From Candidatus Cloacimonadota bacterium (GTDB taxonomy: Bacteria; Cloacimonadota; Cloacimonadia; G963667145), in the NCBI GenBank assembly GCA_963667145.1, contig OY762943.1:145459-209458 (forward strand): a stretch of DNA of 64,000 bases, given 5' to 3'. Shown one piece after another: positions 230 to 5,077 of this stretch. The notes beneath the pieces are model-generated. The model saw only the letters and a list, made by a program, of their open reading frames with translations, had not been told where the DNA came from and searched no databases. How positions within the stretch are numbered: position 1 is the stretch's first letter; each line of letters starts with the position of its first letter. The translations under genes and the position numbers were made by a program.

Positions 230-2698
230 ATGAATTTATCAGATATACTGAAAGACTCAAATTATAAACTGACACAGTTTACGGAAGAGCAAATTAGAGC
301 TTTTGAGGAAAGTATTTCAACAAAAGAAGTCAGAGGAAAAGAAACTCCGTATGTAAAATGCTTGGTTCGTAATAAAGAAATAAAACTCACACCCGAAGAA
401 ACTGTTCGTCAGCTTTATGTGATGGTGCTTACAAAGGACTTTAGCTATCCTGTTTCTCGAATGGAATTGGAATATGCAGTTACTTTTGGGCGAGAGAAAA
501 AGAGAGCTGATATTGTTATCTTTGATAAAGACAAAACAACTACTCCTTACATTATTGTTGAGCTGAAAAAACCAAAATTGAAAGACGGGAAAGAACAACT
601 AAAATCTTATTGCAATGCTACTGGAGCTCCTATTGGAGTGTGGAGTAATGGCGATTCTATTTCTTATTACCATCGAAAAGATCCAAACTATTTTGAAGAT
701 TTGTCGGCTATACCTAATGCAAATGAAAAACTTTCTGACATACTTTCTGAAAGATGGACGATAAAGGAACTTGCAGAAAAAGATAAACTGTTTAGTGAGA
801 AGAAATCGTTGAAAGATTTGATTTTGGAAATGGAAGATGAAGTTTTGGCAAATGCTGGCGTGGATGTTTTTGAAGAACTTTTCAAGCTGATTTTCACTAA
901 GCTCTATGATGAAATGGAAAGTGGACGACATCCTGAGCGTCATTTGGTTTTTAGGAATTATGGTGATACCGAAACTGAATTGAAAAATAAAATTCAACAT
1001 CTATTTGATAAGGCGAAACAAAAATGGCAGGGAGTTTTCAGCGAAGATAGCAAAATAATGCTTACTCCATCGCACTTGTCGGTTTGCATTTCTTCTCTGC
1101 AAGATGTGAAACTCTTCAATTCCAACCTTGATGTGGTGGATGAGGCTTTTGAATACCTGATAAACAAGAGTAGCAAAGGAGAAAAAGGACAATACTTTAC
1201 GCCTCGCTACGTGATAGATATGTGTGTGAAAATGTTAAATCCCAAAGCAGATGAGAAGATGATAGACACAGCTGCAGGTAGCTGTGGCTTTCCTGTTCAT
1301 TCCATTTTCTATGTATGGGATCAGCAATTAATAGCTCGTGGATTGAGTAAAAGTCATAAGTTTACCACAGAGGAAAAATTCCCAGAGCAAATAGACTATG
1401 TTCGTGAGAATGTGTTTGCTATCGACTTTGATGAAAGAGCTGTGCGTGTGGCTCGGACTTTGAACCTAATAGCAGGCGATGGGCAGACCAATGTGATGCA
1501 TCTAAACACACTCGACTGGGAGCGTTGGGATGAAAAAACAGAAGATGAAGATTGGCAAGACACTTATTATGAAGGTTGGCGAAAGCTGAAGAGACTCAGG
1601 AAGGACAGAAACATTAATCGTGATTTTGAGTTTGATATTTTGATGGCAAATCCTCCATTCGCAGGAGATATTAAGGAAAGCAGAATTTTGGCAAGATACG
1701 AACTCGGCAAAAAGCCCAACGGTAAATATCAAACGAAGGTCGGTAGAGATATTTTGTTTATTGAGCGAAATCTTGATTTTCTGAAAGCTGGTGGACGAAT
1801 GGCAATTGTTCTTCCGCAAGGCAGATTTAACAATAGCAGTGATAAGCAGATTAGAGAATTTATTGCAGAACGGTGCAGGATTTTGGCTGTGGTTGGTTTG
1901 CATGGAAATGTCTTTAAACCACACACTGGCACCAAAACTTCTGTTCTATTGGTGCAGAAGTGGGATGAGCAACTTTGTCCCAAAAAAGAAGATTATCCGA
2001 TTTTCTTTGCCACTATGCAAGAGCCAAGCAAAGATAATAGTGGTGAGAAAATATTTGTACGCAAAAGTGATTTTCCAAAATTCCCCTCCTCGGGAGGGGT
2101 GGTCGAAGGTCGAGGTGGTAATTGTCGCAATTCCAAAAACTATTTTGCTTTGCCTTTCAATCCTGAGTTGAAGGAAAGAGCTAAAGAACTGAGAAAAGCA
2201 GGGAATTTGTCAGAAGTCCTATTTTGGCAACAGGTAAAAAATAAGAAATTTAAGTCTTTAGATTTCGACCGACAAAAAATTATTGGGAACTACATTGTTG
2301 ATTTTTATTGTGCTAATTGTAATCTCGTGATAGAAATAGATGGCGAGAGTCACAATGAAAAAGCTGAATATGATGCTAAAAGAGATTCTTATTTGGAAAG
2401 TTTGGGATTAACTGTAATTCATATTCCTGATATAGATGTTAAGAAGAATTTGAATGGGGTGATGGAGATGCTTTCTAACCACCCCGCCCTAAAGGGCACC
2501 CCTCCAGAGGAGGGGAAAGTGTCTGATGTGGTAGAACATTATGATGCTAATGCCAGCGATTTGAATGAATATTTGCTCGACACACACGGACATCTGATTG
2601 TGAAGCACGACCTTTTTAACCACGATGGACTAACCCAAGACGGCATTGCAGAAGCTTTTGCCGAGTTTGCCAAAAAGGAAAATTTAAGTTTTTTTTAG
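230..2698 (+). CDS. Restriction-modification subunit: N-terminal PD-(D/E)xK nuclease-like domain plus gamma-class N6-adenine DNA methyltransferase (HsdM/BcgIA-like), carrying an in-frame DUF559/Vsr-like endonuclease module (aa ~635-745) before a short C-terminal tail
   Basis: 822 aa. SAM motif I DTAAGSCGF and motif IV NPPFAGD. N-terminal ADIVIFD...YIIVELKKP resembles a PD-(D/E)xK (HsdR_N-type) motif. C-terminal LFWQQ...DFDRQKIIGNYIVDFYC...VIEIDGESH is DUF559-like. RBS aaagagga upstream. Confidence 0.8.
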   Translation: MNLSDILKDSNYKLTQFTEEQIRAFEESISTKEVRGKETPYVKCLVRNKEIKLTPEETVRQLYVMVLTKDFSYPVSRMELEYAVTFGREKKRADIVIFDKDKTTTPYIIVELKKPKLKDGKEQLKSYCNATGAPIGVWSNGDSISYYHRKDPNYFEDLSAIPNANEKLSDILSERWTIKELAEKDKLFSEKKSLKDLILEMEDEVLANAGVDVFEELFKLIFTKLYDEMESGRHPERHLVFRNYGDTETELKNKIQHLFDKAKQKWQGVFSEDSKIMLTPSHLSVCISSLQDVKLFNSNLDVVDEAFEYLINKSSKGEKGQYFTPRYVIDMCVKMLNPKADEKMIDTAAGSCGFPVHSIFYVWDQQLIARGLSKSHKFTTEEKFPEQIDYVRENVFAIDFDERAVRVARTLNLIAGDGQTNVMHLNTLDWERWDEKTEDEDWQDTYYEGWRKLKRLRKDRNINRDFEFDILMANPPFAGDIKESRILARYELGKKPNGKYQTKVGRDILFIERNLDFLKAGGRMAIVLPQGRFNNSSDKQIREFIAERCRILAVVGLHGNVFKPHTGTKTSVLLVQKWDEQLCPKKEDYPIFFATMQEPSKDNSGEKIFVRKSDFPKFPSSGGVVEGRGGNCRNSKNYFALPFNPELKERAKELRKAGNLSEVLFWQQVKNKKFKSLDFDRQKIIGNYIVDFYCANCNLVIEIDGESHNEKAEYDAKRDSYLESLGLTVIHIPDIDVKKNLNGVMEMLSNHPALKGTPPEEGKVSDVVEHYDANASDLNEYLLDTHGHLIVKHDLFNHDGLTQDGIAEAFAEFAKKENLSFF
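2083..2119. repeat. GC-rich palindromic hairpin repeat copy 1 (CCCCTCC-tcg-GGAGGGG + t-GGTCGAAGGTCGAGGTGGT tail), inside the methyltransferase ORF
   Basis: Perfect 7-bp inverted repeat with 3-nt loop. Extended copy is similar to copy 4 at 2747-2783 (15/19 tail identity). Confidence 0.7.
2481..2515. repeat. GC-rich palindromic hairpin repeat copy 2 (GCCCtaaaGGGC followed by CCCCTCC-aga-GGAGGGG), inside the methyltransferase ORF immediately after the DUF559 module
   Basis: Two adjacent short palindromes. The second is the same CCCCTCC/GGAGGGG stem as copies 1, 3 and 4. Confidence 0.65.
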
Positions 2699-2701
2699 TT
2701 T

Positions 2702-2721
2702 CCCCTCCCACTGAGGAGGGG
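2702..2721. repeat. GC-rich palindromic hairpin repeat copy 3 (CCCCTCC-cactga-GGAGGGG), directly after the methyltransferase stop codon
   Basis: Same 7-bp stem. Located 4 nt after TAG 2696-2698. Confidence 0.65.
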
Positions 2722-2724
2722 TGT

Positions 2725-4254
2725 TTGCAAAATGGGACTAAAAATTCCCCTCCTTTGGAGGGGTTGTCGAAGACCGGGGTGGTTGAACCTTTCAACGAAG
2801 CGAAATATAAAGCACTGTTGGAAGGGCTGGAAGCAGTTGAATTAGATAAAAGTATAGTTTTTAAAAATAATAAATACTTGAGAATTGATAATGAATTTTT
2901 CAATAAAAGATTTATTAAAGAAATAATTAAACTTGAGGAAAAGCCTAATGAAAAATTAATTAATATTTCTAATTTAATAACTGACTTTGGGGCTTTTTCG
3001 CAAATGAATTTTGTGAATTATATTGAAAAAGGAGTTCCTTTTATTAGAAATCAAAATGTTAAAGATAATTTAATAGATACTACAGATATTGTTTATGTTG
3101 ACAAGAAAACATACAATAAACTTTCTCTTAAATTAGAAGAAAATGACATTTTAATACCAAGAGCTGGAACATTGGGGAATGCAGCTGTAGTTTCAAAATC
3201 ATTACTTCCTGCTACTGCTAATCAGAATTTAGCTCAAATAAAACCAAATTTGAATAAAATAAAACCATATTATTTAACAACTTTTTTATGTTCAAAATTT
3301 GGATTAAATCAGATAGAAAGATTTTCTACTGGAAATGTTCAACAATGGTTAAATTTAGAAAATATTAACAATATTAAAATTCATATTCCATCAGAAAATT
3401 TTCAAAATTCAATTCATAATAAAATAATTAGTTCAATTGCATTAAAAAACAAATCCAAACTAACCTATTCCCAAGCTGAGAACTTATTACTTGAAACTCT
3501 TGGTTTAAAAAATTTTGAACCAAGCTGTGAGCCTGTAAACATTAAAAGTTTTAAAGAGTCTTTTGGCTCTTCGGGGCGATTAGATGCAGAATATTATCAG
3601 AAAAAGTATGAGGAAATTGAATTTGCTATAAAAAATTATTCAAATGGTTATAAACATTTTGGAAAATTTATAGAAAATTATTCAACAGGCTATCCATACA
3701 AAAGTGAAACTTACATTGAAAAAAAAGGTGTCCCGTTGATTAGAATAAATAATATAAACAAAGGGAATTTAGATATTTCAAACGCAATTCATATTCCTAA
3801 ACAAGACATAAATTTGAGTGTAAAAGATATTGCAGTTGAAAATGATATTTTAATTTCAATGTCTGGAACAATTGGAAATTCTTGTAAAATCCCAAAAGGA
3901 GTAAAAGCAGTAATAAACCAACGAATTATGAGAGTTACTCCGAAAAATTATAACAATGAAGTATTACCATTAATAATAAATTCTCAAATTGGAAATTTAC
4001 AATTGAATCAAATTGGAACAGGTGGCGTTCAAACAAATATTTCATCAAATGACATTAAAAATATTTTGATACCTGTATTAACAGAAAATTCACAACAACA
4101 AATCGCTGATTTGGTTGAAAAAAGTTTCAGCTTAAAGGCTCAATCCGAGCAACTACTCAAAACTGCCAAAAATGCGGTAGAAATCGCCATTGAGGAAAAT
4201 GAAGAGATTGCTATGGAGTATTTAAAACAAGAAGAGAATAAAAATGCCAAATAA
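2725..4254 (+). CDS. hsdS: Restriction-modification specificity subunit (HsdS/BcgIB-like) with two target-recognition domains; N-terminal boundary uncertain
   Basis: Two TRD halves: GVPFIRNQNVKDNLIDTTDIVYV and GVPLIRINNINKGNLDISNAIHIP. These resemble the EcoKI HsdS TRD start IRANNIQNGKFDTTDLVFV. Central and C-terminal helical spacer regions are present. Very AT-rich. The first 20 codons are encoded by hairpin copy 4, so the true start may be downstream (e.g. TTG 2878). Confidence 0.75.
   Translation: MQNGTKNSPPLEGLSKTGVVEPFNEAKYKALLEGLEAVELDKSIVFKNNKYLRIDNEFFNKRFIKEIIKLEEKPNEKLINISNLITDFGAFSQMNFVNYIEKGVPFIRNQNVKDNLIDTTDIVYVDKKTYNKLSLKLEENDILIPRAGTLGNAAVVSKSLLPATANQNLAQIKPNLNKIKPYYLTTFLCSKFGLNQIERFSTGNVQQWLNLENINNIKIHIPSENFQNSIHNKIISSIALKNKSKLTYSQAENLLLETLGLKNFEPSCEPVNIKSFKESFGSSGRLDAEYYQKKYEEIEFAIKNYSNGYKHFGKFIENYSTGYPYKSETYIEKKGVPLIRINNINKGNLDISNAIHIPKQDINLSVKDIAVENDILISMSGTIGNSCKIPKGVKAVINQRIMRVTPKNYNNEVLPLIINSQIGNLQLNQIGTGGVQTNISSNDIKNILIPVLTENSQQQIADLVEKSFSLKAQSEQLLKTAKNAVEIAIEENEEIAMEYLKQEENKNAK
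2747..2783. repeat. GC-rich palindromic hairpin repeat copy 4 (CCCCTCC-ttt-GGAGGGG + t-TGTCGAAGACCGGGGTGGT tail), in the annotated 5' end of the specificity gene
   Basis: Direct repeat of copy 1 including the tail. GC-rich island in a ~25% GC context. Confidence 0.7.
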
Positions 4255-5077
4255 TCAAGAAAATATAAAAAGTTGGATAGAGCAGTCTAAAATAGATTAT
4301 ATTGGACATTATATAAAAGCTTGGATTCCTTTTAATGCTTGGTATAATAATGTATTCCCAAGTTTAAATTCTGACAGAGAGAAAATTTCTGCTATAAAAA
4401 AAGAAGCTAACACAGTTCGAAATGCTATTAATTCTTATATGGAAACAGAAGCACAAGAGGGCTCATCATTTCGTAGTTATATTTCAGGATTATACTTTCA
4501 ATTACAGCAAAATGAAATTTATGGTCGTGATGATAGAATTTGGTTTGAAACAATTTTAAAAGAAAAAAATTCTGATAACTTAATCAATAATGAAGCATTT
4601 AGGCATAATAAATATTACTTATCTCGAACTGATGGTAGAAATCTTGGAGATGTAACGGAGATTAAAGTTGTTTTAAAAAAGAAATCGAATAATCAAACTG
4701 TTTTTACTTATATTCACCCAAATTATGATTTAGAACATTTGCAATCAAATAGTGAATTTAAAAAATTGTCACAAAACCAACAAGAAAATATTAGATTGCT
4801 ATTTGAAAAACTTACGCCAATAAAAACATATTCAATTATAGAAAATAATATAAAAGAAAATCCTAAAAATTATTATGAATGTGATTCTTATAATTTCAGA
4901 AGAGAAGTTTTAGATGAAAATTGCAAATCAATATATGTTTGTAAGGCTCTTATTGAAATATTGTATCAACTGAGAAATGTAGTGTTTCACGGGGAATTAG
5001 TTCCCAATGATGGAGCTCAAAATGTATATAAGGAAGCATACCATCTTTTAAGAATGATTCTTGATAAAATCAGATAA
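4244..5077 (+). CDS. Hypothetical protein with C-terminal HEPN-like R-x4-H motif (possible Abi/DUF4145-type RNase toxin associated with the R-M locus)
   Basis: 277 aa, AT-rich like hsdS. C-terminal helix ALIEILYQLRNVVFHGEL carries R-N-x-x-x-H-G as in HEPN Rx4-6H active sites. Overlaps hsdS stop by 11 nt, suggesting operonic linkage. Confidence 0.4.
   Translation: MPNNQENIKSWIEQSKIDYIGHYIKAWIPFNAWYNNVFPSLNSDREKISAIKKEANTVRNAINSYMETEAQEGSSFRSYISGLYFQLQQNEIYGRDDRIWFETILKEKNSDNLINNEAFRHNKYYLSRTDGRNLGDVTEIKVVLKKKSNNQTVFTYIHPNYDLEHLQSNSEFKKLSQNQQENIRLLFEKLTPIKTYSIIENNIKENPKNYYECDSYNFRREVLDENCKSIYVCKALIEILYQLRNVVFHGELVPNDGAQNVYKEAYHLLRMILDKIR

Follow-up and report, generated by a model that had tools for sequence, protein, structure and literature searches.

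A 277-residue R-x4-H protein as a candidate effector of restriction-type modules in a Cloacimonadota bacterium and beyond

We discuss here a gene, which we call T, in a stretch of DNA of 64,000 nucleotides from a Candidatus Cloacimonadota bacterium (GenBank assembly GCA_963667145.1, contig OY762943.1, positions 145,459 to 209,458 of the forward strand). The stretch as a whole is referred to as the window, and coordinates are counted from its first nucleotide (nt). In the open reading frame (ORF) listing of the window T occupies 4244..5077 (+), has an ATG start and encodes a protein of 277 amino acids (aa). It follows a gene M, for a methyltransferase with further domains, and a gene S, for a specificity subunit, and on balance we favour the view that T completes a self-contained defence operon of three genes, M-S-T, as its third subunit or effector. 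In that role T is probably a second, RNA-directed effector of restriction defence. The homologues show T to be a real protein of a widely distributed family that is evolving under constraint, and they show its linkage to restriction-type modules to be close to obligate; both the coupling to restriction-modification (R-M) genes and the conservation of the R and H of its R-x4-H motif are strongly supported. This motif resembles that of the HEPN ribonucleases, and the membership of T in HEPN is at the level of the motif only.

The T gene and its locus

The features of the locus to which we refer are as follows.

M, 230..2698 (+): 822 aa; HSDR_N_2 N-terminal domain, N6-adenine methyltransferase and an inserted DUF559
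S, 2725..4254 (+): 509 aa; specificity subunit with two target-recognition domains, matched by Pfam Methylase_S in two stretches
T, 4244..5077 (+): 277 aa; member of a family without annotation, whose stand-alone proteins have about 250-300 aa
S/T overlap, 4244..4254 (+): 11 nt, out of frame, as read in the sequence
Codons for W27-I-P-F-N31-A-W33, 4322..4342 (+): N-terminal motif in helix 19-37
Beta-rich insert of T, about residues 100-225, 4541..4918 (+): separates the N-terminal helices from the C-terminal pair, by DSSP of the model
Codons for R244-N-V-V-F-H249-G250-E251, 4973..4996 (+): predicted active-site motif, where the penultimate helix ends

An earlier note on this DNA had described T as an R-M-coupled protein with a HEPN-like motif, and its account of the locus holds well. 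The ORF overlaps the end of S, as claimed, by 11 nt out of frame with the ATG of T inside the last S codons, and this start-stop arrangement suggests that translation of the two genes may be coupled. T lies in an AT-rich island of 4.85 kb flanked by ligA and sulP, and it shares the AT bias of the island as had been said, with a GC content of 0.26-0.31 across about 2500-5000 and 0.42-0.45 from 5000 on (that of M, the hsdM gene, is 0.36-0.41). No obvious antitoxin gene had been seen nearby, and indeed the gene after T is for a SulP transporter and is host-like in GC.

The C-terminal R-N-x3-H-G motif is also present as described, R244 and H249 being within ALIEILYQLRNVVFHGEL and forming the sole R-x4-6-H of the whole protein. 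By our own rough estimate about 0.3-0.8 such motifs are expected by chance in 277 aa. A single R-x4-H is thus not significant in itself, and the weight of the motif rests on its conservation.

The T family and its conserved residues

A profile search of 1.84 billion representative sequences gave 694 clusters (at 50% identity) with E<=1e-3, of which 375 reach E<=1e-10. The best 150 of these 694 matches are stand-alone proteins with no Pfam label, of about 250-300 aa where full-length, together with shorter fragments or variants. The best 120 matches of a second, word-indexed search are likewise stand-alone and without Pfam labels, and no distant relative bearing a known domain is present among the best 150 and best 120 matches listed. 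Among clusters at 90% identity 104 match T, again none with a Pfam label.

A scan of one genome per species gave 79 loci. Many classes of Bacteroidota are represented, and there are also loci in Campylobacteraceae, Psychrobacter, Pasteurellaceae and cyanobacteria, and in Verrucomicrobiota, Planctomycetota, Actinomycetota, Chloroflexota, Bacillota, Acidobacteriota, Aquificota, Poribacteria and one archaeal metagenome-assembled genome (MAG).

Conservation was assessed in three alignments, one of 37 homologues (A1), one of 75 genome-derived homologues (A2) that are 23-64% identical to the window T, and one of 73 sequences that includes short variants. R244, H249 and G250 are invariant in all three, so that the R and H, whose conservation the earlier note had made a test of its reading, are retained down to 23% identity. 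In the 75 homologues the invariant residues are W11, F30, N31, W33, R244, H249, G250, P254 and Y262, and D18, W27, I28, P29, A32, L83, L87, Y124, P192, Y241, F248, E251 and A265 are at least 90% conserved. The W-I-P-F-N-A-W motif near the N-terminus is invariant in A1. Position 245, directly after the arginine, is N in the clade of the window T and N or C elsewhere. Only two acidic positions, D18 and E251, reach 90% conservation in the 75 homologues, a scarcity that would fit a metal-independent chemistry.

Linkage of T to two types of partner

For the 77 loci with a called T gene the neighbours were labelled by phmmer with the window M and S and three DUF262 proteins. T is adjacent to and co-oriented with a nuclease-methyltransferase fusion plus S in 46 loci, and with a DUF262 (GmrSD_N) protein, here called G, in 29, with both partners present in 2. 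The earlier note would have taken homologues in unrelated contexts as evidence against it, and what we find is a restriction-type neighbour in the same orientation, mostly at gaps of about 1 nt, in 73 of the 77. The arrangements are as follows.

M-S-T: 33 loci
M-S-T-G: 2 loci
T followed by a fused M-S: 4 loci (about 1170-1190 aa in three cyanobacteria, 801 aa in an Aquificota MAG)
Fused MS followed by T: 1 locus
M-T-S: 2 loci, in Poribacteria
S-T: 4 loci, with M not called directly upstream of S
T-G: 27 loci
Other: 4 loci, two of them at contig ends

The gap from S to T has a median of 1 nt and is within 20 nt either way in 37 of 40 loci, and that from T to G also has a median of 1 nt and is within 10 nt either way in all 29. 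Independent gene calls with precomputed Pfam labels reproduce both arrangements, one locus having in addition a gene for a helix-turn-helix (HTH) controller-like protein before M. RefSeq annotation agrees on the context of T in a Klebsiella plasmid and in E. coli chromosomes. In a neighbour-joining tree T falls into a clade linked to M and S, which includes the window T, and a clade linked to G.

Gene order also varies with lineage, T being placed before a single-chain nuclease-methyltransferase-S protein in cyanobacteria (L015, L017 and L020) and between M and S in Poribacteria (L064 and L067). In Epilithonimonas bovis (L013) and Kaistella haifensis (L007) the flanks are syntenic, but L013 is without M, S and the 5' half of T, with a T remnant of 138 aa left, and from this joint loss the module appears to have been lost as a unit.

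In enterobacteria the module has the order HTH, M, S, T, and two DUF262 genes come after it. In E. coli EC2001 (L087, NZ_CP133811.1 1309152-1327417) it is on an integrase-bearing element adjoining guaA, the module being at 1319463-1323678, and a T copy on a guaA-adjacent integrative element is present in three complete E. coli genomes, where RefSeq has it as 'hypothetical protein'. The conjugative IncF plasmid NZ_LR890357.1 of K. pneumoniae (L086) carries the module in a form 99.9% identical to that of E. coli, which indicates recent horizontal transfer; its T, too, is annotated 'hypothetical protein'.

The surroundings of M-S-T are typical defence islands. Genes for putAbiC, Abi_alpha (Abi denoting abortive infection) and HNH proteins are found around the module (L007:10833-11996, L085:2977-4260 and L016:6318-7781), and a GNAT-domain protein near it matches the PADLOC candidate PDC-M11A at 1e-129.

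The partner proteins M and S

M matches Pfam HSDR_N_2 (7e-29), N6_Mtase (2.5e-30), Eco57I (1.5e-13) and DUF559 (5e-29), and the PADLOC model MTase_I PDLC03034 with 1129 bits; S matches PADLOC Specificity_I at 4.8e-49. In 47 partner M proteins residues E81, D94, E111, K113 and Q123 of HSDR_N_2 are 98-100% conserved, and with this conserved motif of PD-(D/E)xK type M is most likely a nuclease-methyltransferase fusion. There is no hsdR-like ORF among the 17 ORFs of at least 450 aa in the window, the ORFs of the island and seven others having been scanned against Pfam and the remaining ORFs of that size lying outside the island, nor is an hsdR conserved in the M-S-T loci. T itself was considered as an HsdR remnant, and this was rejected as it has no HsdR-related Pfam match.

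M plus S looks like a self-contained R-M enzyme without a translocase. Presumably it resembles the type IIB/IIG (BcgI-like) enzymes. With type IIB/IIG and MADS-type modules M-S has in common an N-terminal PD-ExK domain, a methyltransferase of the gamma class and a separate or fused S. It differs from the MADS type in that its scores with the NCBIfam models MAD2 (304 bits) and MAD5 (201 bits) are far below threshold, the equivalog cut-offs being 720 and 400, and in that no other MADS genes are present. T was also rejected as a MADS component, there being no NCBIfam or PADLOC mad match and M and S being far below the equivalog cut-offs.

The M of the window has a further peculiarity, an in-frame insertion of about 135 aa (approximately aa 632-768) that constitutes the DUF559, Vsr-like endonuclease domain and is absent from eight homologous M proteins. 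A 17-nt palindrome, CCCCTCC-NNN-GGAGGGG, stands on either side of the insert, at 2083-2099 and 2499-2515. It recurs at 2702-2718 and at 2747-2763, and there is a direct repeat of 43 nt (2077-2119 and 2741-2783) whose copies are 86% identical. The segment 2077-2783 has the appearance of a mobile DUF559 cassette with hairpins at its flanks, inserted in frame and accompanied by a solo end. The N-terminus of the annotated hsdS product (MQNGTKNSPPLEGLSKTGVVE) is probably derived from the element, the 5' end of the gene having been over-extended into the repeat.

The partner protein G

The alternative partner G has about 580-620 aa. Pfam recognises a GmrSD_N (DUF262) domain in it (E 1e-30 to 1e-33), and among the PADLOC models HEC-06 and Orf5 match it (1e-27 to 1e-35). 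It retains the DUF262 motifs FQREY, DGQQR and MNDRG. In the T-G loci (L036, L043, L046-L048 and L052-L078, for example L046:10779-12578) G is 1 nt downstream of T.

With regard to known systems, G has the GmrSD_N (DUF262) domain with the DGQQR NTPase motif in common with GmrSD, BrxU, SspE and HEC-06, but these have a C-terminal DUF1524 His-Me nuclease, and HEC-06 and BrxU cannot defend without their C-terminal His-Me motif. The T-linked G proteins have neither DUF1524 (no Pfam match) nor a conserved His-Me motif, as none of the His, Asp or Glu in their last 250 residues is conserved, and have T 1 nt upstream instead. The T-G pair thus looks like a GmrS-type sensor/NTPase with the nuclease half replaced by T, and T is probably the sole effector in this sister clade. 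We regard T-G as a candidate two-gene defence system in which T would replace a GmrD-type nuclease.

Predicted structure

An AlphaFold2 model of T made with the family alignment has a mean pLDDT (predicted local distance difference test) of 93.5 and a pTM (predicted template modelling score) of 0.82. It has helices at 5-14, 19-37 (which carries WIPFNAW), 44-53, 57-67 and 71-89, then a beta-rich region at 105-219 that includes helices within 163-189, then helix 230-248, which ends with R244...F248, a loop opened by H249, and a final helix at 256-276. The earlier note had put the motif in the last helix, and in this detail it was wrong: the motif occupies the end of the penultimate helix and the loop after it. 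The helices 19-37, 71-89, 230-248 and 256-276, each of 19-21 residues, are the candidates for a four-helix core.

Natural members of the family of 196-199 aa (P0203, P0244 and P0245) are without most of the beta region. The model of a short variant (pLDDT 90.1, pTM 0.85) has the helix order unchanged and ends with helix 150-168, a loop and helix 176-197. The beta insert of T gives weak Pur-alpha and AcrF1-like Foldseek matches (E 0.1-0.5), which are not significant.

Relationship of T to HEPN proteins

HEPN domains have their motif where helix 3 ends and in the loop that precedes the last helix, with a large insert ahead of that helix; inserts between helices 2 and 3 are frequent, and R is usually followed by N, D or H (PMC3710099). 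T agrees with this description in position of the motif, residue after R and insert alike. The R-x4-H is invariant in the family with N (or C) after R, and in the AlphaFold2 models the motif closes the penultimate helix and extends into the loop, with a large insert, of about 120 aa in T, before the motif helix. The helix-end and loop position matches the published topology of HEPN (PMC3710099).

A number of observations weigh against T being a HEPN protein in the strict sense. T has no Pfam, NCBIfam, PADLOC or PHROGs match, and no profile link to any HEPN family was found. Searches of T and 36 homologues with the Pfam HEPN-clan models gave none at E<=1 except HEPN_Swt1 (E = 0.17), those of the 75 homologues gave none at E<=0.1 (HEPN_Apea, DUF4145, AbiU2, Abi_2 and others), and Pfam scans of family members one by one, for 37 and then for 75, gave scattered noise only. 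Comparison of T with PDB sequences, as a single sequence, a full profile or a profile of the two C-terminal helices, gave composition-driven matches only (influenza HA2 and LcrV) or none. Foldseek found nothing significant with the full T model (best E = 0.067 in PDB and 0.029 in BFVD), and with the insert-less short variant the best E in PDB was 1.2 with no meaningful HEPN match; the sole HEPN-containing structure listed was IRE1, with an insignificant E of 9.3. The PDB contains many HEPN structures, and a canonical HEPN core probably would have matched one. Within the motif the residue after R is Cys, not N, D or H, in many members of the G-linked clade, and the Ex3[KR] element of HEPN helix 2 is not evident in T. 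A HEPN fold, the lack of which the earlier note had named as grounds against its reading, thus failed to appear in Pfam, PADLOC, PDB-sequence and Foldseek searches alike.

UniProt names two T homologues 'Apea-like HEPN domain-containing protein', with a mate in the same 90%-identity cluster being 'Uncharacterized protein'. We take the HEPN name to be an automatic prediction, because our own Pfam run gives no HEPN_Apea match. We also looked for HepT-like proteins with R-x4-H-x-Y and found none usable among the ORFs of 80-400 aa in the T loci. The earlier note had invoked a family that includes Abi proteins and DUF4145 members embedded in R-M loci, which is true of the HEPN superfamily generally but not of the T family, matched by none of the models.

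Proposed role of T and the alternatives

The role that we favour for T, as effector of the M-S-T operon, would work as follows. T would associate physically with the partner complex, and its invariant R-x4-H, N31 and conserved aromatic residues would form a metal-independent, HEPN-like ribonuclease. It would be silent until the partner engages foreign DNA, or until a phage anti-restriction protein blocks the partner. Once activated T would cut RNA (tRNA, mRNA or rRNA) and arrest the infected cell, giving an abortive second layer at the RNA level behind DNA restriction, as for PrrC/EcoprrI and RonA/HsdMS. M already has a nuclease domain, and to that extent T is not needed for DNA cleavage and could be regulatory, which counts against this role. 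The suggestion in the earlier note of an abortive-infection or toxin partner was reasonable and is largely borne out by the comparative data, but the HEPN fold and the kinship to Abi and DUF4145 proteins that went with it are not demonstrated.

A more novel alternative, which we put forward tentatively and consider less probable, is that T is not a HEPN descendant at all but has a new nuclease or effector fold in which R-x4-H arose by convergence, serving as the shared, exchangeable output of two unrelated DNA sensors, the methyltransferase-nuclease complex with S and the DUF262 NTPase that has no nuclease. If this is true then M-S-T and T-G would be two undescribed defence systems, represented in none of PADLOC 2.0, Pfam and NCBIfam, and recognition of DNA would license RNA cleavage or another toxic activity in them.

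It is rather unlikely that T is a non-catalytic accessory or regulatory subunit, one that serves as an adaptor or in assembly, or that senses nucleotides or anti-restriction proteins, with its conserved residues binding a ligand or nucleic acid. Neither by fold nor by profile does T match any nuclease, an invariant PD-ExK motif is already present in M, and tight coupling and co-evolution with partner type would suit any stoichiometric subunit. However, the 27 T-G pairs would then have no evident effector, except if the ParB-like DUF262 domain itself cuts, and what typifies a catalytic HEPN site is just such an invariant R-x4-H where a helix ends.

We think it improbable that T is a DNA-directed nuclease, which would replace DUF1524 (GmrD-like) in the DUF262 pairs and make a second cut in M-S-T, the output being restriction of phage DNA. 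It is true that G resembles GmrS without GmrD, with T in the functional place of GmrD, and that the beta insert is weakly like Pur-alpha, a fold that binds single-stranded nucleic acid, but the Pur-alpha matches are not significant (E about 0.5). The characterised HEPN enzymes PrrC, RloC, RNase L and ApeA are RNases, and T has few conserved acidic residues for metal-dependent DNA hydrolysis.

The least probable alternative, and one that we consider very doubtful, is that T is an independent single-gene Abi protein or toxin, a passenger of defence islands with neither a physical nor a regulatory connection to M/S or G: multi-gene systems commonly have unrelated defence genes embedded in them (bioRxiv 10.1101/2024.01.29.577857) and T is never fused among the best 150 and 120 matches listed, but a passenger would not be expected to have, in 73 of 77 loci, one or other of only two types of partner, with 1-nt gaps or overlapping codons the rule, at a fixed position after S or before G (sometimes between M and S), with a tree that splits by partner type, and with M, S and the 5' half of T lost together in Epilithonimonas as compared with Kaistella.

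Comparison with known systems

A close parallel is PrrC with the type Ic system EcoprrI, which like T is an R-x4-H effector inside an R-M operon and is thought to be silenced by the R-M proteins and released when a phage blocks restriction (PMC3710099). Sixteen HEPN clades in R-M operons have been proposed to act in the same way as PrrC (PMC3710099). PrrC differs in having an N-terminal ABC-type NTPase and a full hsdMSR, whereas T is a stand-alone protein with no NTPase domain or motif, and the T operon has no helicase-type HsdR; no sequence similarity to PrrC was detected, and T has no PADLOC match to PrrC or RloC. Nor is this a classical type I R-M system, as there is no separate HsdR with an SF2 helicase and the nuclease-type domain is fused to M instead.

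Ronin (HsdM, HsdS and RonA) resembles M-S-T in having three genes, a small linked effector and no hsdR, and there HsdMS restrains the small toxin until Ocr, ArdA or Aop1 appears (bioRxiv 10.1101/2023.04.06.535777). RonA is a membrane toxin of 61 aa, while T is by its model a soluble alpha/beta protein of 277 aa. The M of the window retains the invariant nuclease motif D94/E111/K113, and the module has therefore probably remained a restriction enzyme instead of being purely a decoy, the likeness to Ronin being one of logic only.

In the case of the HEPN families of R-M and ParB operons (ApeA/BMEI1217, MAE_28990, AbiU2, DUF4145 and RiboL-PSP-HEPN; Anantharaman et al. 2013) T matches in motif, position and genomic theme, and what was published on them in 2013 comes nearest to describing the two contexts of T, but the Pfam and PADLOC models for them match neither T nor the 75 homologues. 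ApeA is a defence protein with a single HEPN domain, which forms a homodimer with juxtaposed R-x4-H sites. It is of about 600 aa with an N-terminal beta domain of about 300 aa and a C-terminal HEPN, whereas in T the beta insert splits the helical part. T, at 277 aa and with its helices split, has no Pfam or PADLOC match to ApeA (PF18739), and no member of the A1 or A2 alignments is listed with a HEPN_Apea match. As T lacks the distinguishing features of ApeA, PrrC, DUF4145 and Ronin, we see it as representing an undescribed family of restriction-linked effectors.

Significance

An R-x4-H effector gene in an R-M operon is a theme known since PrrC and the 2013 census (PMC3710099), and to a defence specialist the result for T is conceptually unsurprising, although its distribution over two partners is unusually clean. 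What is added is a family of about 700 clusters (at 50% identity), known in RefSeq as 'hypothetical protein' only, that joins the accessory effectors wired to restriction systems. The occurrence of T with two types of partner, one of which apparently has no nuclease of its own, offers a genetic system for study of signalling from module to effector, and the 99.9%-identical copies in E. coli and Klebsiella make the T system directly testable. It also raises the question of whether restriction modules guard against anti-restriction proteins.

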